Position numbers and translations under genes: made by a program
The notes under the pieces: generated by a model
Databases searched by the model: none
What the model saw: only the letters and a program-made list of their open reading frames with translations
Told to the model about the DNA's origin: nothing
In this document: one piece after another, positions 3,379 through 31,100 of the stretch
How positions within the stretch are numbered: position 1 is the stretch's first letter
Layout of the letters: each line of letters begins with the position of its first letter
Virus record (IMG/VR): IMGVR_UViG_3300022891_000002
Span: 32,001 to 96,000 of that record
Origin: a virus
Strand: one strand, 5' to 3'
Length of the DNA stretch: 64,000 nucleotides

Positions 3379-4516
3379 GATATATCTAACTAAAAGTAAA
3401 CTAGGTTCTATTACTTTTGCTAGTGAGATTAGTCCTAGAAAGATAAAGAAGAATATTAATGTCAAAGGATTTTTTAGGAAAGGTAGATTTGTTAGAGCCT
3501 TTAATAGAGAGCAAGATGTAAGAGAGAAAGTAGTTAAGGTTGCTGTTGTTAGTTTAGCTGTATTGGGAACTGCTTTAGGTGTTGGAGTGGCAAGTGCAGC
3601 TTTAACTAAAGTTCGATATAACAGAAATCTAGTTAACTTTGGTAAGAATATTGCTAAAGGTGGAATTGGTATTGAAGATATGAAAATTCCTTCAGGTGTT
3701 AAAAAAGTCCAAATTCCTAAACCTATTACTGACCCAAATAAAAAATCTATGACATTCTTTGTTGGGGGGATGAGTAAGTTTGAAGATGCCGAAGGAGATA
3801 AGTTTATGAAGTTGGTACGGTCTGCTTACGCTAAACAAGGTAGACCGATAGATAAGACTAATGAACTAATTCCTCTTTTTCACCAACATCAAGTAAAAAG
3901 AGATACTAAGTTTGGAATAGCTCAAGAAATAGCTGATGTATTTGAGAAAGCCACCGTAAAAGGATATAACAAAGACTCGGTTATTATGGCCAATGAGATT
4001 TATAAATGGCACAAGTTAAACCCAACTAAACCTATTAATATTGTTACGGCTAGTGCTGGAGGTTTTCAAGGTAGAGATATTCCACATATATTAGAAGCTG
4101 CGGGAGTAGATACAAAGAAATTAATGAAAGTGTTTTCTACTGCGAGTCCTGATTATGGATTAGTAGATGAAGTAGTACCTACATTAAAAGTTATGCACAA
4201 TGATGATTTATACTCTAAAACTATTCCGGGTATAAAAGACGGATTGCGACTGCCTTCTTTACATAGAGGAACTAGGTTTGTAGGTAAAGGGAACACTCCT
4301 GAATATAAAGATATGGTAGCTAGAAAGTGGATGTATGATGACGGAAACCAAGTAGTTAAAGAAAACGGAACTTTTGTAGCTGGTAAAAGATATAACTCTC
4401 CTTCTGATAAACAGATGCCTTTAATAGTTCACTTTGCTCCTGCCTATTTTAACGGAGAAACTAAGACATCTAAGAAAACTTTGCAATACCTACACAACTT
4501 TATGTTTAAGGATTAG
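3371..4516 (+). CDS. Putative virion-associated protein: basic hairpin, TM helix and alpha/beta-hydrolase-like domain
   Basis: Contains ITF|ASE, VKGFFRKGRFVRAFNR, a TM segment VAVVSLAVLGTALGVGVASAAL, a nucleophile-elbow-like INIVTASAGG and a late His (LIVHF). Confidence 0.45.
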   Translation: MSEIYLTKSKLGSITFASEISPRKIKKNINVKGFFRKGRFVRAFNREQDVREKVVKVAVVSLAVLGTALGVGVASAALTKVRYNRNLVNFGKNIAKGGIGIEDMKIPSGVKKVQIPKPITDPNKKSMTFFVGGMSKFEDAEGDKFMKLVRSAYAKQGRPIDKTNELIPLFHQHQVKRDTKFGIAQEIADVFEKATVKGYNKDSVIMANEIYKWHKLNPTKPINIVTASAGGFQGRDIPHILEAAGVDTKKLMKVFSTASPDYGLVDEVVPTLKVMHNDDLYSKTIPGIKDGLRLPSLHRGTRFVGKGNTPEYKDMVARKWMYDDGNQVVKENGTFVAGKRYNSPSDKQMPLIVHFAPAYFNGETKTSKKTLQYLHNFMFKD

Positions 4517-4839: not shown

Positions 4840-5064
4840 ATGGCAGGTAAAAGATTAGTTCAAGCAGCAAAAATGGCGGGTACTGGAGCAGGAACGGGTT
4901 GGGCTGCTGGCTATGCTTTAGGTGGAAATAACGATAAAGTTCCAATGGTAGTTAAAGGTAAATTGAAGAAAGGAGGGAAAAAAGCTCCTACAATTCAAAG
5001 AAGTGCTGCTATCGGTGGTTTAGCTTTAGGTGCAGGGATAGGCCTACTTAAAAAGAAAAAGTAA
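4840..5064 (+). CDS. Small Gly/Lys-rich protein (paralogous family member)
   Basis: GxxxG runs (GTGAGTGWAAG, GGLALGAGIG), KKKK tail, and an RBS-like GAGAGG upstream. Confidence 0.7.
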   Translation: MAGKRLVQAAKMAGTGAGTGWAAGYALGGNNDKVPMVVKGKLKKGGKKAPTIQRSAAIGGLALGAGIGLLKKKK

Positions 5065-6272
5065 TGACGATAATTCATTTTAATACTGTTCCTAGCGCGT
5101 TAAAAGAAGTTGGTAATAGTGAAGACCCAAATGAAATAGTAAAAGAAGGTTTAATATTCTACTCTACTGAAGAGAACAATCCACATATAGATAGTAGAAA
5201 AAATAAACATAACTTTTCCCCTGATAAAATTAGACAGTTAGTAGAGAATACTAATAAACATTTCAATATCTCTGAGTGTGGAATTCCTGTATTAACAGAG
5301 CATAAAAAAGATGTTAATAATGTGGTAGGCTTCATAGAGTCTCCAATGGAAGCTAGAGTAATAGATGAAACTTATACGAAAGGAAATCCAAAACTCAAAC
5401 ATTTATTAGGAAGAGTTGGTGTATTCGTTAAAGATGTTATTATCAAAACTCCAGAAATAGTTGATAAGATGAGAAGAGGTCTTGCTAAAACTGTTTCTGC
5501 GGGTATTGATTTAGATTCTTTTTCTATTAAAGAACTTTCACTTGTAGCTTTACCAGCAATACCAAACGCAACTCTTTTTAGTTATCATGCTAATAAAGAA
5601 GCTAAGAAACCAAACATGAAGAAAATTAAAAATAAGAATTTGTTAGTATCGAAAGGATATAGTAAAGAAAGTAATTATGCTTTATCTCTTGAAGAAGCTC
5701 TTAATACTTCACAAAGTATTGAAGAACAAAGAGAAGAAGCAATGAAGATATTTACTGCATTTCTGGAAGTAGTTGAAGATGCTAATGAGATTGACCCAGA
5801 GGAAATGGCTTCAATGGGGATACAAGACCCGTCTGAACTTATCCAAGGAGCAATTGAGGATTTATCGAATATGTTAGCTGAGATGTTTGTTTCTGTTCCT
5901 GAACCAGAGACTCAACAACCAGCTCCCGTAACTCCTCAAAGACCAGGAATGCCAGCTAAAACAGCTAGGTACTCTTTTTCTCCCGAGTTAATTAAGTTTG
6001 CAGCTAATCCTTACGCGAAGAGTGGTAGAATGGCTGCTACTGTTCAAAGTAAGATTAATGATATGGCTACTGGTAAAGGTGCTGCTGGAGTTTATAGCAA
6101 AATAGGTAAAGCAATCAAAACTGTTAAAGCTAATCCTCTTAAAACTGGAGCTGCTCTGTTAGTGGCGAACCAAGTAAGAAAAACAGGGATGAAAGCTTTG
6201 AGTAACCGTAAAAAGAAATCTCAAAGTTTAGAAGGTAAACTATCTCGTGCAATTAAAACATTTAAAAACTAA
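5064..6272 (+). CDS. Prohead maturation protease with C-terminal extensions
   Basis: VLTEH..VVGF (His), KTVSAGID (Ser) and KELSLVALPA match caudoviral prohead proteases. It lies upstream of the scaffold and capsid genes. Confidence 0.8.
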   Translation: MTIIHFNTVPSALKEVGNSEDPNEIVKEGLIFYSTEENNPHIDSRKNKHNFSPDKIRQLVENTNKHFNISECGIPVLTEHKKDVNNVVGFIESPMEARVIDETYTKGNPKLKHLLGRVGVFVKDVIIKTPEIVDKMRRGLAKTVSAGIDLDSFSIKELSLVALPAIPNATLFSYHANKEAKKPNMKKIKNKNLLVSKGYSKESNYALSLEEALNTSQSIEEQREEAMKIFTAFLEVVEDANEIDPEEMASMGIQDPSELIQGAIEDLSNMLAEMFVSVPEPETQQPAPVTPQRPGMPAKTARYSFSPELIKFAANPYAKSGRMAATVQSKINDMATGKGAAGVYSKIGKAIKTVKANPLKTGAALLVANQVRKTGMKALSNRKKKSQSLEGKLSRAIKTFKN

Positions 6273-6276
6273 AACT

Positions 6277-6546
6277 ATGAAGAAATCAATCAACTTTTCT
6301 ATTGCTCAAATGGCTTTAGATTCTGCTAAAAAAGGAGTCAAGAGAGCTAAACGTGTCGGCACAGTAATGGCTAAGAAAGGATTAAAGGCAATAGCTAAAA
6401 ATCCTGGTAAAGCGGGTCTTGCAATGGCTGGGTTGGCTACTGCTGGTGGTTTAGGAATGGCTGGGTTAAAAGCAATTGGTAATGCTCGTAAACCTAAAAG
6501 CTTGACTGACCGACTCAAAAATGCTTCTAAGAAGATGTTTAAATAA
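6277..6546 (+). CDS. Small basic Gly-rich protein, paralogue of the protease C-terminal tail
   Basis: Start moved to the ATG at 6277 (MKKSINF). KNPGKAGL and KSLTDRLKNASKKMFK resemble KANPLKTGAAL and QSLEGKLSRAIKTFKN at the end of the protease. Confidence 0.7.
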   Translation: MKKSINFSIAQMALDSAKKGVKRAKRVGTVMAKKGLKAIAKNPGKAGLAMAGLATAGGLGMAGLKAIGNARKPKSLTDRLKNASKKMFK

Positions 6547-6551
6547 CCAAT

Positions 6552-7580
6552 ATGAGTAGAGAACAAAGGCAAGAAGTATATGAGTTATATGACCAAATTT
6601 TAGAGGGTCTGGAATCTAACTACTCTAGTGGCGAGTTGGATGAAGATGATTATACGCGACTTAAAATCAAATCTTTGGCTGACTTAGAAACATCTTTAAT
6701 TGACTTAACAGGATTAAAAGAAAGTAAAATTAGTAACAATGAATCAAATTACAGTATGAACTACGCAAATTTCAATATGGCAGGTTATTTTGTTCCCGCT
6801 CTTGTAGAGTGTATTGAGCAAGATTATGATACTTTAGAAGATGGTTTAGCAGATATTCTCGAACAGACTGAGCTAACCGAACAGCAACTAAATAAAGTTC
6901 TAAGTGGTAAGTTGTTTCCACGTCCTGAGATGGTAGATATTCTCAATGAAATGTTTACTGCAACTTCTACTAACGACGAAAACGCTCTTTTGTTACAAGC
7001 TTACGCAGCAGTAGATAGAGGTGACTTGGAAGAGTCAGTGTTGCTTGAAGTAATGGGTGAAACTGAGGAAGATGACGACTTGGAAGACGAAGATGAGGAT
7101 GAAGAAGATAGCGAAGAAATAGAAGAAGATGAGGAAACTGACGAACCTCAAGAAGATGCTAAATATTCCTACATCAATGATGAAGTAGAATCTTTAAAAT
7201 CTAAAATTGCTAACTTTGAATTTAACTCTCAACTGCAAGAACGTGTATCTGAAGTAGCTACTTATGCTCAACGAGGTCTTCAAGAACATTGGCTTACTAA
7301 GTTTAAGCGGGATTTATATTTAGGTTCTGTTACTAAGTTAGAAGATATGGTGGCAAGCTTCTCTCAAAATGCAGAAAGTAATGGAGTAGATTTAGAAACT
7401 CATCTTTATGCTATTGAATTTGCACTTCAAGCTGATGAAGAAGCTAATGACCCCTCTGTTGATTTTTCTCGTTATGTAGGGGAAAGTCTAACTCCTGCTA
7501 ATGAAGTAGATGATGAATTGCTAAAACTTAATGTAGCTAATATGAAAGAACGTTTAGCTGCTCGCAAGAATAACCGATAA
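6552..7580 (+). CDS. Putative capsid scaffolding protein
   Basis: Very acidic and helical with a D/E tract. Positioned between the protease and the decoration/MCP genes. Confidence 0.55.
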   Translation: MSREQRQEVYELYDQILEGLESNYSSGELDEDDYTRLKIKSLADLETSLIDLTGLKESKISNNESNYSMNYANFNMAGYFVPALVECIEQDYDTLEDGLADILEQTELTEQQLNKVLSGKLFPRPEMVDILNEMFTATSTNDENALLLQAYAAVDRGDLEESVLLEVMGETEEDDDLEDEDEDEEDSEEIEEDEETDEPQEDAKYSYINDEVESLKSKIANFEFNSQLQERVSEVATYAQRGLQEHWLTKFKRDLYLGSVTKLEDMVASFSQNAESNGVDLETHLYAIEFALQADEEANDPSVDFSRYVGESLTPANEVDDELLKLNVANMKERLAARKNNR

Positions 7581-8451: not shown

Positions 8452-9618
8452 ATGAGTCACGTCGCTAGTTTTTTTAATGAACCTTTTATCAATAAGCAGA
8501 TTAATGCTATTGTTGATGAAACACATCGAGATTTACTCAAACGAGATAAGTTAATCGATGAAGCAATGCCAACCCAGACGTTTGAAACTAGAAACTTCAT
8601 GGCGTTGTTAACTTCCCGTATTGCTCCTGCTGCTAGAGTAGTTGCTTGGGGTGCAGAGATTCCCGTTACTCGTCATGGAGGATTTGAGAAAGTTACAGCT
8701 CAGCTTACTAAACTTGCTTTATCTCACAGATATGATGAAGAAGATATGTGGGCATTGTCTGAAGCTTATCAACTAGCTGGTTATATGTGGAATAAGATTC
8801 AAACTATCCACAAGCCAGATGGAACTGTTCAACGAGGAGCTAATGATGACCTTGCTACAGCTTTATTTGGGGATGTCCAACAACTATTAGACGGTATGGT
8901 AGATAGAATGGACATGATGAAGTGGCAGGCAATATCTACTGGTGCATTAAACATCGAAGATATGTCTACTGGAGTTAAGTTTGAGATTGATTATAAGAAG
9001 TCAGACGCACCTTACAATCATTTTCCTCTACCTTTAGTTGCTACTGGTAATACTGTTACCCCTACTCTTAATAAGTGGAGTGATAAACAGAATGCTGATG
9101 GTTTCCGCAATATCCAAGATTTAACAGATATCTACGAAGATACTAACGGTTTCTTGCCAGATAAGATTGTGATGAACCGCAAACTTTGGAATATGTTCTT
9201 AGACCAGAAATCCACTAAGGAAGCTGCTCGTGCAATGACTACCTCAGAAATTGGTTTAGTTTCTAGAGATATGGCAGATGAACTATTGCGTAGACGTAAG
9301 TTACCTCCTGTAGTAGAGTTTGGTGAAAAGTATCATGAAGAAGTTCCAGGTGGAGAAGCTGTTACCGCTAATTTCTTGAACGATAATCGTCTAGTATTTC
9401 TCAAGAATAAGATGGGTATCTCAGCAATTGGCCCTACTATGGAATCTAAGACTAACATTATTTCTAGTGGTAAAGATATTCCTAAGATTAAGACTGGTAT
9501 TTACTTAGATATCTACACTGAAAACGGTCGCCCTCCTAATGATGTAGTAGCAACAGTAGCTAGCTTTATTCCTATAATCATGAATCCTAAACTTCTGATG
9601 GCACAAACAGTAAATTAA
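8452..9618 (+). CDS. Major capsid protein (lambda gpE-like, HK97 fold)
   Basis: Motifs AARVVAWGAEIP, RMDMMKWQAISTG, KFEIDY, KWSD, PDKIVMN and ASFIP fit Phage_cap_E. 388 aa. Confidence 0.85.
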   Translation: MSHVASFFNEPFINKQINAIVDETHRDLLKRDKLIDEAMPTQTFETRNFMALLTSRIAPAARVVAWGAEIPVTRHGGFEKVTAQLTKLALSHRYDEEDMWALSEAYQLAGYMWNKIQTIHKPDGTVQRGANDDLATALFGDVQQLLDGMVDRMDMMKWQAISTGALNIEDMSTGVKFEIDYKKSDAPYNHFPLPLVATGNTVTPTLNKWSDKQNADGFRNIQDLTDIYEDTNGFLPDKIVMNRKLWNMFLDQKSTKEAARAMTTSEIGLVSRDMADELLRRRKLPPVVEFGEKYHEEVPGGEAVTANFLNDNRLVFLKNKMGISAIGPTMESKTNIISSGKDIPKIKTGIYLDIYTENGRPPNDVVATVASFIPIIMNPKLLMAQTVN

Positions 9619-10990: not shown

Positions 10991-11752
10991 ATGACTAAGC
11001 TAAGAATTATTAACAGAACTCCTTTAAAGAGTCGTGCAATTCCATTTATTGAACTACAGCCTAAATATCTTTATTGGCTAGACACTGGTAAAGAGATTGA
11101 TGTAGAAATTCTAAAAGAGAAAGATGGACATTATGAAGTAAAGCTGTCTACTAATTTTGAGAATTCTCCAGTAGGTATTCGCTCTTGGTTTATCTATAAA
11201 GAACACGTTCAAGTAGTAGAAGATAAGAAAAAGAAAGTATCTAAGAATGTACTTAAGACTGATTACTATTATCAATTAGATAATAGTTACCAACCTTATA
11301 CATCTTGTTTTCTTACTTGTGTAGCGATGTTACTATCTTTCTATAAAGTTAAGGTAACTCCTGACCAACTCTATAACAAGTGTCGTGATTTAGGATACGA
11401 CAGATTTTCTGGGGAAGGTATTGTAGCTATCCTTAAAAACTATGGGGTTAATTATCACTATACTACTTCTGGTACTGCTCAAGATTTAAAAGATACTGTT
11501 ACCAAGGCTCCTGTAATCTTAGGCACCTATCTAACTGAAGCTAGCCACATTGTGTTAGTAGTTGGCTATGACGAAACTGCTTATGATGGTCGTGGAGCTT
11601 TTATAGTCAATGACCCCTATGGAGAGTTTACTCATAACGGCTATATCCACACTCCTACAGCCGGCAAAAATACACTTTATTCTTTCTCTTTAATTGCTCA
11701 AGTTGGCGCACCTGAAGGAGACGGAAATTACTGGCTACATCTTCCAGTTTAA
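10991..11752 (+). CDS. Endolysin, peptidase C39-like domain
   Basis: YYYQLDN...SCFLTCVAMLL (Cys), SHIVLVVGYD (His) and FIVNDPYG (Asp). The N-terminal HYEVKL..WFIYKEHV module resembles cyanobacterial cell-wall hydrolases. Confidence 0.8.
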   Translation: MTKLRIINRTPLKSRAIPFIELQPKYLYWLDTGKEIDVEILKEKDGHYEVKLSTNFENSPVGIRSWFIYKEHVQVVEDKKKKVSKNVLKTDYYYQLDNSYQPYTSCFLTCVAMLLSFYKVKVTPDQLYNKCRDLGYDRFSGEGIVAILKNYGVNYHYTTSGTAQDLKDTVTKAPVILGTYLTEASHIVLVVGYDETAYDGRGAFIVNDPYGEFTHNGYIHTPTAGKNTLYSFSLIAQVGAPEGDGNYWLHLPV

Positions 11753-13601: not shown

Positions 13602-13952
13602 ATGTGGCGACCTTTTGACAGTCCAGCTAAAAAAAGAAAAAGATTTATAGAAAAAAACAGTCCTTATTTAGTTCCATTAGCAGTTGGAGGATTGGCAGCT
13701 ATGGGAGATGAAAATGCTTCAGTTAGACAAAGACTTAAAAGAGGAATGGTTACAGGAGGTCAGACTTTTGCAGCTATGAAGACCGCAGGAGTATTTGCTA
13801 ATAACGCAAGTAAGAAGAATTATTATAAAAATACTATTCTACCAACTGTTCAACAAGCTAGAGGAATTGCTAATACCGGACTGAACATTAAAAAAGATAT
13901 TAGAGCTGCTACTAGGTTTGATTTTTGGAAAAAGAAGAAAGGAATTATATGA
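13602..13952 (+). CDS. Small basic protein with hydrophobic segment (probable family member)
   Basis: KKRKRF, LVPLAVGGLAAMG and a WKKKK tail. Confidence 0.6.
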   Translation: MWRPFDSPAKKRKRFIEKNSPYLVPLAVGGLAAMGDENASVRQRLKRGMVTGGQTFAAMKTAGVFANNASKKNYYKNTILPTVQQARGIANTGLNIKKDIRAATRFDFWKKKKGII

Positions 13953-14545
13953 TGTACAAGTATTGCACAGTAGAAAAGATTCAAAGAAGGTTAGGTAGAC
14001 GAGCTAATATCTTTACTGAGTCTCTTATACCCTCAGATAATGTATCGGTCATCTCTTCTAATTTAGATGTAGAGTTAGTACATGAACTCATATTAGCTAA
14101 TGAGACTTTAATAGATACTTACTTTAGGATGTTATATGTTCTACCAATACATCCATTAGATATTCCACTAATAGAACCAATAGTAGTGGGATTTGTTATT
14201 AATGACTTAATGATGTCTTTATATGACCAAGGAATGATAGCTAGTTTAGGAGGTGACGGAGGATTAGGTTCTACTATCTACCAAAAAGCTAAGGAGTTAC
14301 TTAAGAGTTACTTTATTGGTACTAATATCTACATTCCAGGAGTATCTGCTCCAGAAGACAATGCTCTCCAAGGTGCTTATAGATTGATTCTACCTAATAC
14401 TCCTGAGTTAATAAATAGGAGAACTTCACTTACTCAGAATGTTACGGTTGTTGGTGAGTATAAAACTAATAAAAATAATTTGGGTCTTGACTTTGGGGAA
14501 GATAGGAGATATAGAGGTGTTGAAGTTAACTGGGAAGTATATTGA
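13949..14545 (+). CDS. Head-tail connector (Mu gp36 / DUF1320-like)
   Basis: YCTVEKIQRRLG...LIDTYFRMLYVLPI...YQKAKELLK. Start placed at the ATGA overlap at 13949. Confidence 0.65.
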   Translation: MMYKYCTVEKIQRRLGRRANIFTESLIPSDNVSVISSNLDVELVHELILANETLIDTYFRMLYVLPIHPLDIPLIEPIVVGFVINDLMMSLYDQGMIASLGGDGGLGSTIYQKAKELLKSYFIGTNIYIPGVSAPEDNALQGAYRLILPNTPELINRRTSLTQNVTVVGEYKTNKNNLGLDFGEDRRYRGVEVNWEVY

Positions 14546-14546
14546 T

Positions 14547-15050
14547 ATGAGAAAAATAACGTTTACAGGACAAGTACAATCTAACTATAGAGCTATTGTT
14601 CGTTCTAGTTCTAGCCTAAGTAATACATCTAGGTCTGCTAATAGTTTTAGAGCCAAACCTAACTCTATTGATACTAGAAATAAAAACATTAGAACTGTAG
14701 CAAGAGCAGTAGCTTATACTAATGTAGGAAATACTTTAAGAAAAGAAGTAGATAAAAATAAGCAAAGATTCTTAAAATCTGGCCCAAAATCTCGAATTGG
14801 TAAGATTGCTAATGATACCAAATTAGGAGCTTCAGCAGGAGCAGCTTTAGGTTTTCTTAAAGGAGCAGGAAATAGTTTAACTACTCCGGGGAGTGTAAAA
14901 AAGAAAATTGCGTATGGACTAGGACACGCTACTAAACAAGCTTTAAAAGGTGGAATTGGAGGAGGTAGTCTAGGAGCAGGAATTGGTACTACGAGAGGTT
15001 TTATTCAACCAAATAAAAAGAAATCACTTTTAGATAAATTTAAAAAATAG
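14547..15050 (+). CDS. Gly-zipper basic protein with conserved leader
   Basis: Start moved to the ATG at 14547 (MRKITFTGQVQSNY). Contains GKIANDTKLGA and GTTRGFIQPNKKK. Confidence 0.75.
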   Translation: MRKITFTGQVQSNYRAIVRSSSSLSNTSRSANSFRAKPNSIDTRNKNIRTVARAVAYTNVGNTLRKEVDKNKQRFLKSGPKSRIGKIANDTKLGASAGAALGFLKGAGNSLTTPGSVKKKIAYGLGHATKQALKGGIGGGSLGAGIGTTRGFIQPNKKKSLLDKFKK

Positions 15051-15056
15051 AAATTT

Positions 15057-15935
15057 ATGATGTTTGATATTACGTTTGCAGGTCAAGAAGAATGTCTAAA
15101 CTTCGGAAGAGGTAAGGATAAAGCTAAAAGAAAAAGTAGAGTTTCTATAGCTGCTGGAGCTGGATTAGGTACTATAGCAGGTGGCCCAGTTGGAACTATT
15201 GCTGGTGGATTGATTGCTAAAGGTATTAATAAAGAAAAAGATAGATATGAAAAGCAAGGCCCAAGAAGTCCTCTAGGTAAGATTGGTCACGATGCTAAAT
15301 TAGGGGCTAAATCAGTAGGGATTGGTAGTGCTATTACTGCGGGGTTGGCTGGAGCAGCTTTAGGTTCTAAATTACCAACTGTAAAAAAGAAAGGTTTTCT
15401 AGGTCTAGGTAGGGATAAAAAAGCAGAAAGTAGACAGAAACTTAAAAATACACTTATTGGAGCAGGTTTAGGAGTTCTTGGAGGTGGAGTTAGTGGAGCT
15501 GTTTCTGGTGCAGGTAACGGTGCGTTAGTAGGAGCTACAAGAGGATTTGTACAAGAGAATAAAACCAAGAAAAAGAAAGGTAAGTTTTCTAACTCTACGA
15601 AACTTGCTGAATTTGCTCTTAGTCTTCCACCTAAAAAACAAAAACAAAGAAGTAGATTAGGAATGGTAGGACATGATACTAAAGTTGGAGCTAAAATTGG
15701 TGCGGGTTTAGGAGCAGCTTATGTAGGTAGTAGCGGTATTAGAGGAGTTATGAAAGCTCCTGGCAGTCTTAAATCTAAATTGGGTTCTGCTGCCTTAGTA
15801 GGTGCTTCGGGTGCATTATTAGGTAGTGGAGTAGGAGGTTTTAGTGGGGCAACTTACGGAGCAGGAATAGGGGCAGGTAGAGCATTACTGACTCCTAGAA
15901 AGAAAAAGTCTCTATTTAATAGATTAAAAAAGTAG
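15057..15935 (+). CDS. Two-unit Gly-zipper basic polyprotein with conserved leader
   Basis: MMFDITFAGQEECLNF-GRGKDK, then two copies of the GxxGHDxKxGA unit joined by GKFSNSTKLAEFAL. Confidence 0.75.
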   Translation: MMFDITFAGQEECLNFGRGKDKAKRKSRVSIAAGAGLGTIAGGPVGTIAGGLIAKGINKEKDRYEKQGPRSPLGKIGHDAKLGAKSVGIGSAITAGLAGAALGSKLPTVKKKGFLGLGRDKKAESRQKLKNTLIGAGLGVLGGGVSGAVSGAGNGALVGATRGFVQENKTKKKKGKFSNSTKLAEFALSLPPKKQKQRSRLGMVGHDTKVGAKIGAGLGAAYVGSSGIRGVMKAPGSLKSKLGSAALVGASGALLGSGVGGFSGATYGAGIGAGRALLTPRKKKSLFNRLKK

Positions 15936-15939
15936 AAGT

Positions 15940-16566
15940 ATGAGAAAGATTATATTTGCAAACTCTACTAATTTAAACTTTGGTAGAGGTAGAGATAAAA
16001 AGAAACGTAAATCTAGAACTATTCTTTCGGACGCTAAAGACTTTGTTGTAGGTGCAAAAAATGCGGTCAAAGAAGCTAATATTAAAAGTCCTAAAGATTT
16101 AGTAGATATCTATAATAGACGTAGAGATAGGTCTAGCGTAGCTACTAATTCTCTTACTACTATTGGAGCTGCTTTAGGTGCTAGAAGTGCTATGAAATCG
16201 GGTATGAATCCCACTTTAGGTGCTTTATCTGGAGCTTATAATTTATCTTTTATAGGAGGAGCAGTAGACAGAAGAATATCTAAAGAAAAAGCTAGATATA
16301 GAAAAGAAGGTGCTAGGACTAGATTAGGTAAAGTAGGAAACGATACTAAAGTTGGAGCAGTTAGTGCAGCAGGAAGTTACGCTATTGATGGTGCGATAAA
16401 ACAATTACGAAGACCCGGAAGTATTAAGAGTAAAGCACTTAAAACTATTGCTGGCGCTATTTATGGAGGAGCTAAAGGAGCTGTCATTGGAGGCATCGTT
16501 GGCTCAGGGGTAGGAACTATCAGAGGATTTGTTCAACCTAACAAGAAAAAGAAGGATAAGAAATGA
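15940..16566 (+). CDS. Gly-zipper basic protein with conserved leader
   Basis: MRKIIFANSTNLNF-GRGRDKKKRKSR, GKVGNDTKVGA and GTIRGFVQPNKKK. Confidence 0.75.
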   Translation: MRKIIFANSTNLNFGRGRDKKKRKSRTILSDAKDFVVGAKNAVKEANIKSPKDLVDIYNRRRDRSSVATNSLTTIGAALGARSAMKSGMNPTLGALSGAYNLSFIGGAVDRRISKEKARYRKEGARTRLGKVGNDTKVGAVSAAGSYAIDGAIKQLRRPGSIKSKALKTIAGAIYGGAKGAVIGGIVGSGVGTIRGFVQPNKKKKDKK

Positions 16567-17804
16567 GAGAGATTATATTTGCGGGACAAGTAAAGAATAA
16601 TTACCTATATACCAACTTTGCGAAATCTAATAAGAAAGATAAAGAACCGAAAAGAAATCTTATTAAAGGAGCTGCTTATTTAGGAGCTTCTGGAATAGTA
16701 GGTCAACAAGCTATTAGGTCAGGTATTCCTAGATTATTAGGTGTAAGATTGGAATCTCACAGTACCTCTAAAAAGAATGCTAAAGAAATATTAAAAAACG
16801 GAGGAATTCTCGACCCAAATAAAGGAGGAAGTGGTGCTACTAAAAATTTAACTAATGATGTAAAACGTGGCTATGGTTGGGCTGCTGATGTATTTAATAA
16901 ACAAGAAAAAGGTAAAGAATTTCTTACTAGAGCAAAAAATAGTATTTATATAACAGGTAGAAATGACGCTTCTGCTAACGCTTCAAATAATGTAGCTAAT
17001 AACTTAAGAGGCTTTTGGAAAACTCCAGTAGGTCAATCTATCTATAAGAAAGGACAAAGAGCTTTTTATAGAGGTCAGTCTAGTACAGATATTGATAGAG
17101 ATGCTATAGAGTCTGAAGTCAAAAACTGGAGAAAATCAAAAGAAACACAAGAAAAACTTACAAAACTTAAAAATCAACTTAAAGACCAAGTAGAAAGTTC
17201 AAAAAAACCTAAATCAAAGCTAGACAATCCTAGAGACTTTACACCTAAAAAAAGCAAGAAATACGGCTATCTCTCTCCTATAGATAAATCAATAAGAAAG
17301 GGGATACAAGAGCAGATTAAAGAGATTAACAGTGGAGCTAGAAAAAGAGCCGAACTTACAGATATAGCCGTTGAAAAAAGAAAACCCGAAGCTATTAAAA
17401 AGGGTTTATTAGGCAGAGGTAAAAGTTTATATATTGGTGGTGGAGATGATTACTTTAATAAAAACTTTGTACCTGACCCTGATGATGCAATTGCTTTAAA
17501 AACCAACAAACCTATTAAAGTTAGTGGCAGTAGAACAGGTGCAACTTTAGAAGCTTTAAAAAGAGAAGGTGGAGGAAGTAGATTAAAAGGAATTGCTAGA
17601 TTAGTAAAAGCCAATCCTAGTAGAGCTTTGGCGGGAGCTGGTATTTTGGCAGGAGGTGGATTATTAACAGCTAAACTGGGTCAGGCAGCCTACAGGAATA
17701 TAACAGCTCCTAGTGATGGTAAAGTCAAAGGATTTAGTAGAAAAAATAAATCAGGTAAATGGTCTAATGTTAAATCATTTATAAGAGATAAAATAAAGAA
17801 ATGA
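16563..17804 (+). CDS. Leader-bearing basic protein with possible ADP-ribosyltransferase-like domain
   Basis: MREIIFAGQVKNNYLYTNF leader. ESHSTSKKNAKEILKNGGILDP...SIYITG resembles the H-x-T..A..I...G and Y-x-[TS] ART strands. C-terminal VKGFSRK..VKSFIR hairpin. Confidence 0.5.
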   Translation: MREIIFAGQVKNNYLYTNFAKSNKKDKEPKRNLIKGAAYLGASGIVGQQAIRSGIPRLLGVRLESHSTSKKNAKEILKNGGILDPNKGGSGATKNLTNDVKRGYGWAADVFNKQEKGKEFLTRAKNSIYITGRNDASANASNNVANNLRGFWKTPVGQSIYKKGQRAFYRGQSSTDIDRDAIESEVKNWRKSKETQEKLTKLKNQLKDQVESSKKPKSKLDNPRDFTPKKSKKYGYLSPIDKSIRKGIQEQIKEINSGARKRAELTDIAVEKRKPEAIKKGLLGRGKSLYIGGGDDYFNKNFVPDPDDAIALKTNKPIKVSGSRTGATLEALKREGGGSRLKGIARLVKANPSRALAGAGILAGGGLLTAKLGQAAYRNITAPSDGKVKGFSRKNKSGKWSNVKSFIRDKIKK

Positions 17805-18292
17805 GAAAAATAACTTTTATAGGTTCTACTAATACCAGTTATTTATTTGGTAGACCTAAGAAACCATCAAGATTAAAAAGTGCGGGAATAGGTGCTGGTG
17901 TAGGAGTAGCTGCTGGTTATAATGCTGGTGGAATTCCTGGTGCAGTTATGGGAGGACTTAGAGGTGCTACTGATAGTTTTGTAAGGAAGAACGGCTATAA
18001 CTCTTTACTTACTAGAGCTAAAAGATATGCTCCTACTTCTTTTGCTGGCAAAGTAACTAACGATGCTAAAACTATTGGAACTCTATCTGCTGCTGGAGGT
18101 GGATTAACGGGAGCTGTTAGAGGAGGAATCAAAGGACTTAAAGGTGGTTGGAAAGGTGCTTTAGGAGGAGCAGTTGGTCAAGGAGCTAGGTCTGCATTTG
18201 GTGCTGCTAAAAAAGGAGCTGCTGTAGGTGCAGGAATTGGTGGATTGAGGGGATTGAAGAGAAAGAAAAACTATTTATTGCCTACTTCTTAA
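17801..18292 (+). CDS. Gly-zipper basic protein with conserved leader
   Basis: MRKITFIGSTNTSYLF-GRPKK, GKVTNDAK and many GxxxG motifs. Confidence 0.75.
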   Translation: MRKITFIGSTNTSYLFGRPKKPSRLKSAGIGAGVGVAAGYNAGGIPGAVMGGLRGATDSFVRKNGYNSLLTRAKRYAPTSFAGKVTNDAKTIGTLSAAGGGLTGAVRGGIKGLKGGWKGALGGAVGQGARSAFGAAKKGAAVGAGIGGLRGLKRKKNYLLPTS

Positions 18293-18294
18293 AT

Positions 18295-18654
18295 ATGAGT
18301 AAAAGTAAATGCAAGTTTAGGTCTAGGTTTAACACTTGGAAAAGAAGTAGAGAAGCTTGGGAGGTTAGTAGAAGTCTTATTCGTAAGTCTCTTTACTTAT
18401 GCCCTATTTGTAGATTACCTCTATCACTAGGAGAAGGACATTTATTCCATATCATACCTATTAAACTACTAAGTAACTATAACTGTATTAGTTTAGTAAG
18501 TAATGAACTTAATCTACTTTACTCTTGTAAGTCATGTAACTTAAGACAGAGAACTGACATTTACCTACCTTGCTTAGAAGATAAGTTACTAACCTTATGG
18601 ACTAAGGTAACTAATAACATAACTAAAGATAATAACTATGAGAAATGCGCTTAA
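18295..18654 (+). CDS. HNH endonuclease-like protein
   Basis: CPIC...HLFHIIP...NLLYSCKSCN. Confidence 0.7.
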   Translation: MSKSKCKFRSRFNTWKRSREAWEVSRSLIRKSLYLCPICRLPLSLGEGHLFHIIPIKLLSNYNCISLVSNELNLLYSCKSCNLRQRTDIYLPCLEDKLLTLWTKVTNNITKDNNYEKCA

Positions 18655-19147
18655 AGTAGATAAGATATTTAACTGGCAAAGTGATACGAGTAATGGTACT
18701 CAGAATAATAACTGTAGGTTACAGATATACTCTCCGTTGTACGACTTTGATGAAACAAGTAAAGCTATTAAGGTAAAACGTAGATACTTAAATCCTAAAG
18801 AATACGAGGTAGTTATATGTAGCGACTTTAATGACCATGTATCAGGTTCTATTACTACTGAGATTTATAGTTTAGCTAGTAAGGTAATTAAGGAACATAC
18901 ATTGCTAGTTCCTCATACTATTTGGATTAATAAATATGAAGAACATCATGAAGGACTCTTTCATTTTCAATACTCAATTTCATTAGTAGATATAGATAAT
19001 AACTACGTAAGTAATAGTAGCTTTACTTATTATCCTATTTGGCAAGATGAATTAGAGTTTATTATGACTGGTGAACCTATCTATTTTAAACAGTTAATGT
19101 CCGCAGGCTGGGAGAAGTTATATAACAGATGGAGAACAAGAGTATGA
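18638..19147 (+). CDS. Hypothetical protein
   Basis: 169-aa ORF overlapping its neighbours; no function recognised. Confidence 0.6.
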   Translation: MRNALKVDKIFNWQSDTSNGTQNNNCRLQIYSPLYDFDETSKAIKVKRRYLNPKEYEVVICSDFNDHVSGSITTEIYSLASKVIKEHTLLVPHTIWINKYEEHHEGLFHFQYSISLVDIDNNYVSNSSFTYYPIWQDELEFIMTGEPIYFKQLMSAGWEKLYNRWRTRV

Positions 19148-19516
19148 AGAGAATTATATTTATGGGTCAAGTTAAAAATAAAAATATAGAATTTGGACTT
19201 CTGAGAAAAGATAACGACCAAGAATAAGTATGGTTTAGTGAATAATCATAGTAAAAGAGAAATAGCTTTAGGCACTGTCTTAGGTGGTTTAGCCGGAATG
19301 AATGCTGGAGGAATATACAACGATGCCAGAGCAGCCAGTGAAGTAAACAAACGTTTAAGTATTAAGGATTTAGATAAAAGAATAAAAGGACAATGGAAAG
19401 CTAAACTAACTGGAGCAGTTATTGGTGCAGGATTAGTAGGAGGTAGTCAACTATTAATGAGAAAAAATAAGAAAGACAAAGACGGACGTTCAGATAAAGG
19501 TAAAAAGAGAAAATAA
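19144..19516 (+). pseudogene. Frame-split member of the leader-bearing Gly/Lys family
   Basis: The ATG at 19144 gives MKRIIFMGQVKNKNIEFGLLRKDNDQE* (27 aa). The Gly-rich body is in the +1 frame, open from 19205 to 19516. Confidence 0.6.
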
Positions 19517-25136: not shown

Positions 25137-28100
25137 ATGGATACTTCAAGCAATATTAAATTTAATGTTGAGGGAGATGATAAACTCTCTCAGTTCTTAG
25201 AAAAAACTCAAAAATCATTTAAAGAGCTTAACGAGAAATCTCTTAGGTTATTTAATACTGGCTTGGGAGAAGGTTCTAAAAATTTAAAAGATATTACTAA
25301 ACAGTTCCAAAACAAAAAGAGTATAGTAGATAGTTTAGTTAAAGATTACGGTAAAGCTACGGCTGCTACTAATGATTGGACTGCTTCTTTAGGTAAGTTA
25401 ACTAAAACCACTGCATTATTAGGAAGAGCTTTAAATGCACTAAATATTGCCTCTATTGGCTCTGGAGTAGTTAAAACGGTTAGTACCGGAGTAGCAGAAA
25501 TCTTAGAGGCAGTAACACTTACTCAGACTGGTTTGAATACCATGGCTGCTTCTGGTTTTGATGGTACACCTTTAATGAATTCTTTAGGGGAAATTACTGC
25601 TGTTTTAACGGGTAACAGTCAGGCAATAGAAAGCTTTTCAGCAAGGTCTTCTGCTGCTTTTAACGCATTTGAACAGAAACTAAATGAAGTTAACATTGTA
25701 TTTGGATTGTCTCAAGAAAGATTATCTGAATATGGGGACTCCCTACAAAACGGTTTAGAGAAGAATCTTAAAAATAGTGTAGGTTCTCTTACTGCTCTTA
25801 ATGCTGCCTATCAAGCTGCTAGTGCCGGATTTACTGAATTCCAACAAAACCAAGATGTTGTTAACCTAGCAATTAAAGCTAATAAAGCAGCCCCGGGAAG
25901 TGACCTATTCCAGATTGGTGGAGCTATTGGTAAAGGTGCAGGTATTCTTGAAACTAGAGATATTGCAGAATTAGAAGAAGTAACTGCTAAATGGCTGGCT
26001 ACTGAACAACTAGGTCTTACTACTGTAGGAGACATGACTGAGTATATTTCAGATATGTACAGCTCCCTTAAAAATGCAGGTATCGGTACCAATGACCTGG
26101 TTAATGAGACTCAAGGTTTGGTAGTAGCATTTACTAAGTTAGGTGGCAAAGTTACTGACATCTCAACAGAAATGCAAGCCTTCGCTCGTAACACTATTGG
26201 TAAAACTCCTGAAGCAATGAAAGCTTTAGAAGGATTGGTAGATGCACAGGGGAAAGCAATTACTCTCAACCAAGAATATTTTGGTAGAAAAGGAGTTGTT
26301 CAGGGTATAGTTGACTTTGCTGAAGCAGTTGGCTATAACACTGAGAAAATTAAGGAAGTTTATAACGAGACTAATGCTTTCAACTTTGCAATGAAGGTCT
26401 TAGCTCAAAACGGTAATCTTGCTAAGAAATCTATTGAGGATATTAGTCAAGTAACTTCTGAGAATTTAACTGAAGCTTTTGATTCTGCTACTTCTTCGTC
26501 TCAAGCAAAAATGGAACAAATCACAAATGCTTATGATGAGATAATGATTTCGTTTGGTAAAGCGTTCCAAAAGAGAACTGAGGAAGGTGTTAAATCTGTT
26601 GAGTGGTACAAAGAAGTTTTAGTTAAATTCAAAGAGCCATTAGTAGAAATAGCTGAACGCATGGTTAATTTCTATGATGGTTTAGGTAAGATAACTGGAA
26701 CTCTTGGCGCGTTAGCTAAGATGTTGTTTGGTATTGCCGGAACTATTATTTCTTTTAGAGCTTGGGGATTAGTTTTAGGAGGAATTACTAACGGCTTTAA
26801 AGATTTAAGAAAGGAAGGGTCAGTAATAAAAGAACTCTACCAATCAAATCAAGGTTTATTAGCTATCGGTAAACAAGTTCTTGGGTTAGACCAGCAAAAA
26901 CTTCTAAGTCAAAATAGAATTAATGAAGCAATTAAAAACTCTGCTACTTTAGAGAAAGAGCTTAGTAACTCTATTGGTAAGTCTAGTGCTGATAGATTAA
27001 ATAATATCGGAGTAATTAAAGAAGAGATAGACTCAATTGTTGCTCGTGACCAATCAATTATCAAAGGTCAACAGAACGTAACTAAAGTAGAAGAATCTCT
27101 TAAAAGTAAAACAGATAAACGAGATAGTCAACAGTCCGACGTTACAAATACTCAGAAAAGCTTAGCTAATCTTAAAGTTCTTAAACAAGATATAGATAAC
27201 ACATTTAAAGACAATGTAGAGAATACTAAAAGGTCGGTTCGATTACAAGAAATAGCTACTGAACAATCTGCAATTACACAGCGAAAAGCTAGTAAAGAAG
27301 ATTTAAAAAGATATGTGGAGCTTAATACTGAAAAGCTAAGACTTCAAGATACTTATAACAAAACTACTCTTGACCAATTATCTTCTCTAGAAAAACAGAA
27401 ATCTATTCTTAATAATAAATCTAGAAAGTCAGAAAGAGATTATGCAGCTTTAGATAAACTCAATACAAGAGAGACTCAATTACTTGATAGGGAAAGAACT
27501 AAAGATAGAACTCCTTTAACTCAAGATAAAAGAAACGAGCTAAATAATACTCGTAAAGATGTTGTTACTAAAATAGGTCAAGAAGAATTAGTTCTATTAA
27601 CTCAGAGACAAAAGTTACAAGAAGCTAACAACATAGTAGATAAAGAAACTGAAAAATTAAATAAAGCTAAAACCGACCAAGCTGAAAAACTTAATAGAGT
27701 TACTAAGACTACTACTGAATTAGCTGTTCTTCAACAAGACCTCAATACTAAGAAAAATACTTTAGATAGAGTTAATATTGCTTTTGAAGGTCAGCAACAG
27801 AAACTTTATACAATTCAAAATGCTTTAAGAAAAGAACAAACTACTTTAGATAAGATAAGAAATAAAGATAGTGTAGAATACTTACAACAACAGAAGAAGG
27901 TACTGACTCTACAAGTAGAAGAAGCTAAACAACTTTCTACTGTCCAAAGTGCTAGAACTACTCAACAAGCAGCACAACAAACTTATAACAAAGCAGAGTT
28001 TGAGAGTAAAAGAAAATCTATTCAGCTAACTAGAGAACAAGGACTAGCTGAAGGTACTCTTATTGAGATGAGAACTCGTTCAGGTTCAGTTGCCCTTAAA

Positions 28101-31100
28101 AATAATGCGTTTAATAGAGCTTTAATTGCTACTAATGAAGGTCTTACTAAATCTTTTAAAGCAATAGCTACTCCTGCTCAATCTTTTACCAGCATTCAAG
28201 ATACTCTTAGCAATAAGATGGCTGACTTGAGAAGTAATATTGGTCAAATAGGAACGGTAGCTAGTAGAAGTTTTACAGGAATGGCTGCTTCTGCTCAAAC
28301 TACTTTTGCTTCTATCGGAACCTCTGCTGCCTTAATGGGTGAAACTATCAAAGCTGCTTTTATTTCTACAGGTATAGGTCTATTAATTGGGGCCGTAATA
28401 GCATTAGGAGCTAAACTATTTCAAGTTGGTCAAGCTTCTGCAAAATTAGATAAAACTTATAAAGACTTTAATGTAACTCTTGAAGACTCTGCTACTAAAT
28501 TTGATAGAGCAAATATCTCTTTTGACAATAGCGTTCAAGGACTTAATAAGTTCAGTGACAGACTAGAAGCTTCTAAAAAGTTAATGGCAGATGTGGACAC
28601 TACTGTCTTTGATGACTTAGGTAATGGAATTAAAGGTGCTGTTGGAGGAATAGTAGATTTTGTAAAGACTGCTACTGGACTTAAACTGTTAGACCCTTTA
28701 TTTGCAAATATTGGTGAAAGAATCTCAGCCATTTGGACTAGCTTTTCAGACGCAGAATTCATTAAACGTTCTGCTAAAATGACTCAAATATCAGATTTTA
28801 TTCAAACTTATGAGTTAGCTCTTAGAGGACAAAATAAAGAATTAGCAAACGGAAACCTATTAACTGAAACTTCTAATCAAAAGATTAAAGCTCGGATGAT
28901 TTTGACTGGCGAGGATTTAGAGCGAGAAAAAGCTGCTAATACCGCTAGAATTGATTCGTTCCAGTCTATGACAGATATTCAAAAGAAAGAGTTAGAAGAG
29001 TTAAAAGGTAAAGGGGACAAGCTAAACGAAAGAGATAAACAACAAATTGCTTTATTAGAATCAGAAATTTCTAGACGTGAAAAAGTAATAGAAGTAAGTA
29101 AAAAACAATTTGAAGACCAACTCAAGTATTATGAAGCTCGTAACCTTTTATTAGATAGAGAGAACAAGTTTAGTAATACTCAAGTATCTTTAGAAGAAAT
29201 TAAGAGTTTACAAGGACAAGTTAATTCTTCTCAAACTGCTCTTAACACTAATATTTCAGAAGGTTTAGACATTTATTCTGCGTCTATTAAAGATTCTTCT
29301 GTTAAATCTAAGCAATTCTTATCTGACCTTAAAGATGGGAGTTTAAGCGTAAAAGCCACTCTTAAAGGTCTGGGTGGAGAAATCTATAAAGTTGGAGAAG
29401 ATGGTAAAGTTCTATCTAAATTGCCAGATACAGTTCTTAAATCTATTGAAACAGTTCTTAAAGGTAAAGAGATAGATGGTAAGAAATATACGTTAGAGCA
29501 AGTTCTAGGTCTTAAAGAAACTAGAGATGCGTTAACTGAGGCAGGAGTAGAAATACCTAAAGACCTTTCTGTTCTTGCTGATAAAATGCGTAAGAGCTAT
29601 GAAGAATCTGAAGGTCAAATCAAACTTATCAATCTCAAAGACCTTGAAAAAGATTTAGCTGATTTTAGTGTTTTATCAGATAAGTATCAAGAGAAGAAAA
29701 GACAGTTTCTATCCACAACTAAAGATGATGTTGGTGCTACTGCATTTTCTACTTCTCTTAAGAAATCTCTGAGGTTAGCAGAAACAGATTTACAGTCTTT
29801 CCTAAACGCTCTAGATTCGTCTTCTAAGGGCTTGAATAAGTATGTGACTGCTTCTACTAATAAATTCACTAAAGAAGCCTTAGATGGAACATTAGACCTT
29901 ACTGAAGGCTTAAAGGAGCTAGGTCAGGTAGAAAGTGAAATTAAAACTGAGCAGTTAGATAAACTTAAAGCTGCTATTACCGGAAAGAACAAAGATGAGA
30001 TTTTAGTAGCTCTTAAAGAGATTGGAGTAGAAACTGAAAAAGCTCTTACAGCAGATTCAATTGATTTCAATAAGTTTGAAGAGAACTTGGGAATGTATGT
30101 TGAATCTTTAAATGCAGTTGCAGAAAGTGGAGAAGCTACAAGTGAAGAAATAGCTAAGAAGTTTGAGAATGTCTACAACCAAATGAAAGGTAGAGTTACT
30201 CCGGCTGCCTACAAAGATTTAACTGAGACTCTAATTGGTTATGAAAAAGCGGCTTCGGAACAACGAATCAGCTATATTGGAATGGAAACTTCTGCTCTTG
30301 AACAACAGAAGAAATATGGATTCTTACTAGAAACAGATTATATAGAGCAAATTAATAAACTCAATATTCAAACTTCTGAAGAAAATATTAAGAATAAGAA
30401 AATAGAACTAGCTAGGTTACTTACTTTATACAAAGAATCAGCTCCTCAAGTAGTTAAAGCTAAAGCAGAATTAGAAGCTCTCGAACTGAATCTTTCAAGT
30501 CAAAAGTCCAATAATCCCGTAGAAATTGCTAAAGCTCAAAGCAAAGAAAGATTTGATACTTTAAAGAAAGAACTTGAACTAGGAACTATAACTAGGAGAC
30601 AGTTTATTGAAGAAGAACTCAAAGATTCTAGAACTCTTTATGAAACTCAGCTAGTAGAAAAACAAAAAACTCTTACGGAATTACTAAAAGATGAAGTTAA
30701 AAATGCTAAAGCTATCAAAGCTCTTCGTAAATCTATGGAGTCAGATGAGCAAGACTTTAACTTAAATCTATTAGAAATTAACAGAAGGAGAATAGAAGAA
30801 CAATTTAAGCTACAAACTAATGCTTTAGGTAAGAGAGAGCTTGAAGCTAGAAAAGACGCTCTTAACGGAAATACTAAAGAGGAACTTGAATCTGTCCGTA
30901 AATTAGAAACAGATAAGATTGCTCTAAACATTCAGACTTTAGAAGCTAGGTTAGCAGTAGAAAAACAAGGAAGTGAGAAGTTCTTAGAAATAGAGAAACA
31001 GTTATCAGAAGCTCGACTATCTTTACAAGAAACTCAAGTTAAACAATCTAAAGATAGAACTAATGAAGAGATTGAGAGAAAGAAAAGTGAGTTAAACACT

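Follow-up and report, generated by a model that had tools for sequence, protein, structure and literature searches.

A leader-tagged array of polycationic glycine-zipper proteins as candidate capsid-internal cargo in uncultured ~150-kb tailed phages

The internal proteins of phage T4 have in common only a capsid-targeting sequence (CTS) of 10–20 residues, which is removed by the head protease (PMC3012670). In phage SPN3US, the paralogues gp53 and gp54 have identical 15-residue N-termini with a protease motif, and the protease also cuts its own C-terminus (PMC5694885). This report concerns a gene array that invites comparison with both systems. It lies in a 64,000-nucleotide stretch of DNA (hereafter the window), bases 32001–96000 of the 150,360-bp IMG/VR phage record IMGVR_UViG_3300022891_000002 (33% G+C), from an uncultured phage. 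Six co-directional genes on the plus strand (14547–19227; A to F in Table 1) open with a common leader, M-[RK]-x-I-[TI]-F, and continue into basic, glycine-rich bodies. The favoured explanation, with a probability of roughly 0.45, is that, in a group of uncultured tailed phages with genomes of about 150 kb, they encode cargo proteins of the capsid interior, each targeted there by a T4-CTS-like leader that is probably cleaved.

In the proposed scheme, each protein would consist of three parts: a leader of 14–19 residues (M-[RK]-x-I-x-F-x-G-[SQ]...[YF]); a Lys/Arg patch (R-P-K-K-P-S-R in E, otherwise of the type G-R-G-K-D-K-K-K-R-K); and a Gly-zipper body predicted to be soluble and helical. The net charge across the array proteins is +25 to +51. 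The leader would target each protein to the capsid, recruiting it into the prohead during assembly, and would probably be clipped past its closing aromatic residue by the phage's own protease, the putative product of 5064–6272. The mature polycations would then lie among the packaged DNA and exit with it at infection. Their role afterwards may be charge neutralisation or DNA condensation, membrane insertion of the Gly zippers or, in the case of D, enzymatic activity; the first-pass annotation of the window had suggested DNA condensation, channel formation or host takeover.

The six leader starts listed by the first-pass annotation of the window are all confirmed, both by a regular expression and by a profile hidden Markov model (HMM) of the leader. 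Run over the complete 150,360-bp genome in six frames, the expression finds exactly these six open reading frame (ORF) starts, all inside 4.7 kb. On the window, the HMM recovers them with E values of 1e-9 to 1e-12, the next best match in the 64 kb having an E value of 1.5. Eleven related metagenomic contigs were retrieved, and the leader profile was run on the resulting twelve contigs. Conservation in homologues, which had been named beforehand as one of the tests on which the proposal should stand or fall, was found in 44 leader genes on the 12 contigs, with two to six genes per contig. All 44 products have a pI of 10.3–11.9, 10–23% Gly and 15–24% Lys+Arg. Gene C has 25 metagenomic homologues, all of which keep both the leader and the G-R-G-K-D-K-K-K-R-K patch. 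The capsid proteins across the leader contigs are only 54–61% identical. The leader family is specific to this phage lineage.

Codon usage within the leader is informative. Ile4 is encoded by ATA 15 times and by ATT 16 times, Gly8 by all four codons and Thr5 by three; this synonymous variation shows that conservation acts on the protein and not on the DNA, and it rules out nucleotide-level conservation as the explanation of the leader. When the leader is stripped, the bodies fall into at least five clusters plus a few singletons. The A/C/F type has 12 members; the E type has 11, always of 163–164 amino acids (aa), and occurs in 11 of the 11 related contigs that cover the slot; the B type has seven; a type of 136–143 aa adjoining the C39 peptidase has four; and the D type has three here (55 in a wider search) and no detectable similarity to the other types. 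The leader is the sole element common to all of them, the unrelated D body included, and two chimaeric homologues (P0087 and P0125) have leader-plus-module units recombined onto a D body. The leader family thus exists, is under protein-level constraint and is modular over unrelated bodies.

Within orthologues the leader is less constrained than what follows it. Among E orthologues, residues 2–17 form the least conserved 16-residue window (0.67 versus 0.89 for the body; rank 1 of 148), and the body is near-invariant from the R-P-K-K-P-S-R patch on, so that the boundary between leader and body is sharp. To be common to paralogues yet loose within orthologues is how signal peptides and pro-peptides behave. 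Phages that share D but are more distant have different leaders, each common to several basic Gly-rich genes within one phage. These replacement leaders, carried by basic Gly-rich genes and also by D, close with F, after which come a small residue and a K-rich patch; in the array itself, the closing residue of the leader is Y or F and the next one G, A or R. One such contig (L024) has six genes whose leader takes the form M-x-x-L-F-I-S-D...F and runs into A-R-K-K-G-S-K-D-K-K-K-R, and in another (L023) three genes open with M-Y-L-L. Leaders therefore vary by phage lineage and not by cargo, as expected if a phage-encoded partner reads them.

A candidate for this partner is the 5064–6272 product. 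It has no direct Pfam or PHROG match, and direct protease profiles (Peptidase_S78, S78_2, Mu-like_Pro, S77, Prp and phrog_976) find nothing in the genome; for Peptidase_S77 (PF03420), this holds at E <= 10 across the 150 kb. A profile built from the protein and its close homologues (A3) reaches 168 remote relatives, of which 56 were sampled. Matches to phrog_976, 'head maturation protease', were obtained with 34 of the 56, the best at E 1.9e-18. Relatives such as P0127 (E 2e-57 against A3, 7e-8 against phrog_976) and P0131 (5e-45 and 5e-13, respectively) match both profiles, and His80 and Ser145 are invariant in 56 of 56. The link to phrog_976 through relatives, taken together with the invariant His/Ser pair, leads to the assignment of 5064–6272 as encoding a head-maturation protease domain. 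The predicted protein would consist of this domain (residues about 1–180), a helical scaffold-like region and a basic Gly-zipper passenger at the C-terminus.

The passenger connects the putative protease with the array. Orthologues of the protease occur in short forms, which end a few residues past a conserved F-S-P-E-L-I-x-F, and in long forms, in which a basic passenger starts after ...T-A-E-F|G-Y-R; the passenger modules differ between long forms. These forms, together with free-standing copies of the passenger, were seen among P0028–P0070, P0223, P0237, P0242, P0247 and P0265. The free-standing homologues, which match the C-terminal portion of the profile at E 1e-7 to 1e-16, have short leaders that end at the same A-E-F|G-Y-R junction. 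A passenger fused to a head protease must enter the prohead, and free leader-bearing copies therefore very likely do so as well. This pattern of fused and free passengers is the best indirect argument available here for a capsid-internal location of the leader-tagged basic proteins.

A candidate cleavage motif points in a similar direction. N-[FY]-[GAS] occurs nine times in eight head-assembly proteins, against 2.6 expected from shuffled sequences (z 4.2); in twelve other structural proteins, it occurs four times against 4.1 expected. The stricter form [EQS]-S-N-[YF]-[SAGR] has four sites in all ORFs of the genome: one just past the 5064 protease domain, two in the scaffold and one in the leader of A. 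The site past the protease domain is conserved in A3. This distribution is consistent with a single protease that processes itself as well as the scaffold and the cargo, and is treated as a lead.

The properties of the array proteins are compatible with such a location. Their maximal Kyte–Doolittle (KD) hydropathy over 19 residues is 0.8–1.44, versus 1.8–2.25 for three true transmembrane proteins of this phage (holin-like, 3371 and PAS); they are therefore not classical membrane proteins. They would be soluble polycations when made, which would suit co-packaging with DNA, and their uncharged Gly-zipper stretches could insert into a membrane later. In an AlphaFold2 model of C (low confidence), residues 1–46, which take in the leader and the basic patch, are disordered and four long helices span 67–197. 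Searches of the PDB by sequence and profile with C, D and the protease gave no matches, and no array protein scored above threshold against Pfam or PHROG. The ratio of non-synonymous to synonymous substitutions (dN/dS) is 0.07–0.31 for array genes, compared with 0.03–0.23 for the capsid protein; all array members are under purifying selection.

The body motifs noted in the first-pass annotation are also present. A core R-[ST]-R-L-G-K-[IV]-x-N-D-[AT]-K, P-G-S-x-K-x-K, Gly zippers and a C-terminal R-G-F-x-Q-x-N-K-K-K occur in A, B (twice) and C, and more weakly in E and D. Gene A starts at 14547, two bases past the stop of the upstream gene, and an upstream in-frame ATG at 14439 is not the start; its orthologue in the related contig L008 is 91% identical (dN/dS 0.15). 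The dN/dS of B, whose two module copies reflect an internal duplication, is 0.14, and that of E is 0.07–0.17. The description of the locus as a six-gene array needs some amendment: six leader starts are there, but the sixth gene is split by a frameshift and two leaderless genes (18295 and 18638) lie inside. The HNH-like gene at 18295 is kept inside the array in all relatives checked and is 97% identical in L008; it is therefore not a recent homing insertion. The break in F falls at an A4 run (19206–19209) and represents a pseudogene, a sequencing error or recoding. The F body, in the +1 frame, has weak similarity to the E and 4175 body types.

Gene D stands apart from the other members. Its 55 homologues, spread over many contigs of 110–151 kb, have invariant His, Ser, Arg, Tyr and Asp positions, and its motifs (G-V-R-L-E-S-H-S-T, Y-I-T-G, Y-R-G-Q-S, and S-L-Y-I-G-G-S-D followed by F-x-P-D-x-D-D) look enzymatic, as far as sequence can tell. 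D has no Pfam match (24 family members scanned) and no PHROG or PDB match. An assignment as an Alt-like ADP-ribosyltransferase was considered on the basis of a low-confidence ESM Atlas structural row, ART-HYD1 (template-modelling score 0.58 by target, 0.21 by query), but is not backed by any profile; PF15633 gave no match. In L024, a ClpP-family protease gene (PF00574; 9374–9874, minus strand) adjoins a D-like gene.

Table 1. Coordinates of the leader genes and surrounding features in the window.
Feature	Position	Strand	Remarks
MuF/SPP1-gp7-like protein	181		recognised by eye; distant match to a Pam2 gene
381-aa protein, head module	3371-4516		one strong transmembrane (TM) helix (KD 2.12); basic N-terminal region; no family match
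Small basic Gly-zipper protein, 74 aa	4840..5064	+	upstream of protease; likeness to array in composition only
Putative head-maturation protease, 402 aa	5064..6272	+	transitive homology to phrog_976
Small basic Gly-zipper protein	6277..6546	+	short F-terminated N-terminus; between protease and scaffold genes
Acidic scaffold-like protein	6552..7580	+	two of the four genomic [EQS]-S-N-[YF]-[SAGR] sites
Major capsid protein	8452..9618	+	no N-terminal propeptide; phrog_29 at 4e-33, PF03864
Papain-like Peptidase_C39_2 protein	10991..11752	+	type annotated as endolysin in PHROGs
Holin-like gene	11758
TM-anchored PAS protein	12040
Mu gpJ/gp36-like head-completion gene	13925..14545	+	weak Pfam match; homologue of Pam2 'gene product J'; directly upstream of array
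Leader-gene array	14547-19516	+
Gene A, leader-tagged basic protein	14547..15050	+	167 aa, net charge +29
Gene B, leader-tagged	15057..15935	+	292 aa, two Gly-zipper/basic module copies, net charge +40
Gene C, leader-tagged	15940..16566	+	208 aa, net charge +33
Gene D, leader-tagged	16563..17804	+	413 aa, distinct and strongly conserved body, C-terminal Gly zipper, basic tail, net charge +51
Gene E, leader-tagged	17801..18292	+	163 aa, core member
HNH-like zinc-finger gene, no leader	18295..18654	+	inside array; PF01844 E 0.0099, below cut-off
169-aa gene, no leader	18638..19147	+	inside array; same place in relatives
Gene F, leader part	19144..19227	+	27-codon ORF ending in stop
Gene F, body	19205..19516	+	+1 frame (GTG 19238), frame open from 19205
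Gp80-like gene (PF23140)	19595		downstream of array
Neck1-like gene	21332		downstream of array
Tape-measure-like gene	25137-34823		single 3228-aa ORF

The array is part of a long co-directional late structural operon, within which no convincing internal promoter or terminator was seen. First placed between head-tail connector and tail genes, it has the Mu gpJ/gp36-like head-completion gene upstream and the Gp80-like and Neck1-like genes downstream. By the usual length rule, should it hold here, the 3228-aa ORF in the tape-measure position would mean a very long tail; the 2794-aa counterpart of this ORF in a distant relative matches PF10145 (PhageMin_Tail). The nearest isolates are the Pseudanabaena phages Pam2 and PA-SR01, with 28% identity in the capsid protein. 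Between the window and L008, the capsid proteins are 61% identical (synonymous divergence, dS, about 1.8), and identity reaches 91–97% (dS 0.3–0.6) in the block that extends from the gpJ-like gene across the array; this difference in divergence indicates mosaic exchange of the block.

The first-pass annotation had also drawn further basic, Gly-rich genes into the family. For those at 3371, 4840, 13602 and 42955–44351, the likeness is one of composition only, composition-adjusted BLASTP being non-significant, and the genes at 42955–44351 are moreover on the opposite strand and have no leader. The gene at 6277 does have a short F-terminated leader of its own, which is found in its orthologues too. 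Homology of 4840 or 6277 to A or D was dropped after Smith–Waterman z-scores of 4.6–7.3 against shuffled sequences found no support in composition-adjusted BLASTP. In L024, the slot of 6277 between the protease and scaffold genes holds two leader-tagged basic genes. As for the capsid-targeting propeptide proposed at the outset, several independent sequence patterns would fit a removable targeting peptide, but the links to 3371, 13602 and 42955–44351 are unsupported.

A number of observations weigh against this account. The resemblance between the leader and the protease–passenger junction is one seen by eye; an HMM of the leader alone does not detect the junction, and homology between the two is therefore not supported. 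The candidate cleavage motif was picked after inspection of the data, and one of the scaffold sites is not conserved in two related contigs (L010 and L014). The capsid protein, which aligns with that of Pam2 from residue 2 onward, has no propeptide, and thus the protease has no known substrate. The array is missing from Pam2, which does carry homologues of the head genes. With C and E as queries, tblastn over 50,697 phage records detected no homologues in isolated phages, and the E alignment, run against 185,579 prokaryote genomes, retrieved no relatives and so pointed to no host. Confidence in the AlphaFold2 models is low both for C (pLDDT 58) and for the protease (pLDDT 41), and Foldseek of the C model against BFVD gave no match at E <= 0.001. 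The high conservation of the E body is unlike that of arms-race cargo such as the T4 internal proteins. Finally, a C39-like peptidase is encoded 3 kb upstream of the array and a holin-like gene just upstream of it, and in three related contigs (L012, L016 and L022) one leader-tagged gene lies directly upstream of the C39 peptidase.

These points leave room for other explanations. The proteins might be minor structural or internal virion proteins that retain the leader as an N-terminal docking strand for a common partner, such as the portal, the scaffold, the head-completion protein or the inner capsid surface. Such a role would draw on the same gene context and leader evidence; the alternating I-x-F pattern fits a β-strand, and both the missing capsid propeptide and the failure of the leader HMM at the protease junction are in its favour. 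A permanent element should, however, match or exceed the body in conservation; in E, the leader is instead the least conserved window, and the aromatic-then-small junction recurs at the boundary of the protease domain and at passenger starts; a docking strand is consequently considered unlikely. Quite unlikely, too, is that the proteins go unpackaged and act late on membranes as part of the adjacent lysis cassette, whether as lysis helpers, envelope disruptors or superinfection-exclusion factors, with the leader as a regulatory or processing tag that the C39-like peptidase might cut. The array lies 3 kb downstream of the Peptidase_C39_2 protein, the holin-like gene and the TM-anchored PAS protein, and the gene order in L012, L016 and L022, the sub-threshold Gly-zipper matches in Pfam and the cationic, GxxxG-rich, leader-bearing and C39-adjacent pattern, which recalls class II bacteriocins, all suit such a role. 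The peptidase, a stand-alone domain, passes the cut-offs of both PF13529 (60.5 bits) and PF03412 (26.4 bits). Against this, no segment of the array proteins reaches TM hydropathy, the leaders do not end in Gly-Gly, and a set of five or six paralogues, with lengths up to 413 aa, would be unusual for lysis functions; in L024, moreover, leader genes lie between the protease and scaffold genes in a 21-kb locus with no C39 gene. The same peptidase also exceeds the cut-off for Peptidase_C70, the AvrRpt2 family. F-G is the pair after which AvrRpt2 cleaves and is also a frequent ending of the array leaders, possibly by coincidence.

Two further possibilities concern the leader. In the staphylococcal phage 80-alpha, the capsid and scaffold proteins mimic the N-terminal extension of L27 that is cut by Prp, and the array leader could likewise mimic a host substrate and be removed by a host protease of the Prp/L27 type. 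By eye, an aromatic residue followed by a small one and a basic Gly-rich patch loosely resembles the L27 junction, and the phage's own protease gene belongs to no directly detectable Pfam protease family; no Prp peptidase (PF04327) was found in the phage genome. The motif nevertheless differs from the L27 consensus F-F-A|S-K-K, the capsid protein has no such leader, the phage itself encodes a head-maturation protease by transitive homology, and the differences in leaders between phage lineages point to a phage-encoded partner, all of which makes a host protease very improbable. The leader might also be a shared N-terminus with no function of its own, left by tandem duplication or gene conversion; 36 of 43 members are joined by weak body similarity, and hence are paralogues, and the genes are in tandem. 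A mere relic would hardly persist with synonymous variation over 12 contigs whose capsid proteins have diverged so far, nor would it be expected on the unrelated D body or be swapped for other shared leaders in distant lineages, and we give this possibility very little weight.

If packaging by a cleavable leader is correct, capsid-targeting leaders would not be peculiar to T4-like and phiKZ-like phages, but would exist with another code and another protease family in an uncultured group. Probable virion cargo and injected proteins of uncultured phages could then be listed from sequence, D being a candidate for widely conserved, enzyme-like cargo. There would also be a new class of extremely cationic Gly-zipper internal proteins, which might act in DNA condensation or envelope penetration, and the leader would be a candidate short tag for loading foreign proteins into capsids. 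A broader and more doubtful generalisation is that a group of ~150-kb phages with a phrog_976-type protease uses a lineage-specific, aromatic-terminated N-terminal address code that loads a varying set of polycationic Gly-zipper proteins, the conserved, enzyme-like D and protease-released passengers; the junction would then be both targeting tag and protease site, and the arrangement would have arisen independently of T4.

Several known systems resemble the array in part. Gly-zipper membrane proteins (Gly-zipper_YMGG, Gly-zipper_Omp, Rick_17kDa_Anti and SlyB-like) have similar runs of G/A/S-x-x-x-G/A/S, and one array homologue was automatically named SlyB by JGI. However, the array proteins have no lipoprotein signal, their hydropathy is below the TM range and their positive charge is extreme; the best score against the Pfam glycine-zipper families (PF13441, PF13488, PF13436 and PF05433) is 17.9 bits, with a cut-off of 28.9. 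Class II bacteriocins with double-glycine leaders are also cationic and GxxxG-rich, with a short N-terminal leader and a C39-clan peptidase nearby. Their junction has Gly-Gly (or G-A, G-S) at −2/−1, which the array leaders do not; the array proteins have 160–413 aa, and the peptidase on the array side is a stand-alone C39_2 domain of an endolysin-annotated type, next to a holin-like gene. A C-terminal encapsidation tail of the HK97 maturation protease was reportedly described by Duda et al. in 2013. There, too, a short peptide on a protein of the protease family directs prohead entry, and here the protease orthologues bear variable C-terminal passengers. The signal in the array is N-terminal and on separate proteins, though, and its tie to the protease C-terminus is one made by eye.

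The closest parallels remain the T4 internal proteins and the inner-body or ejection proteins of phiKZ-like phages. In T4, the CTS of IPI–III and Alt is a short N-terminal leader that alone is common to otherwise differing, mostly basic proteins; as in the array, the genes are clustered, their content varies between related phages and a prohead protease is phage-encoded. The leader sequences are unrelated, however. At the array junction, an aromatic residue precedes a small or basic one; the (L/I)-x-E motif of gp21 cleavage is missing, as is any Glu. The genome has no S77 (gp21-type) protease, its own belonging to the phrog_976 type. The array bodies are Gly-zipper polycations, E is highly conserved and not hypervariable, and the array is known from its genes alone. 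SPN3US gp53/gp54 and phiKZ gp93 share with it tandem paralogy and near-identical N-termini with a protease site, but the (S/A/G)-x-E cleavage motif of these phages is not found in the array leaders. The protease clade is also different, the genome measures 150 kb compared with 240–280 kb, and the propeptides here are short. In its logic, the array would thus match the T4 and phiKZ-like systems, but membership in either fails on defining details, namely the lack of a Glu-type motif and of an S77 protease. What appears to be new here, as read from the sequences compared, is the combination: the leader code and the protease family both differ from those systems, and the putative cargo forms a new class.

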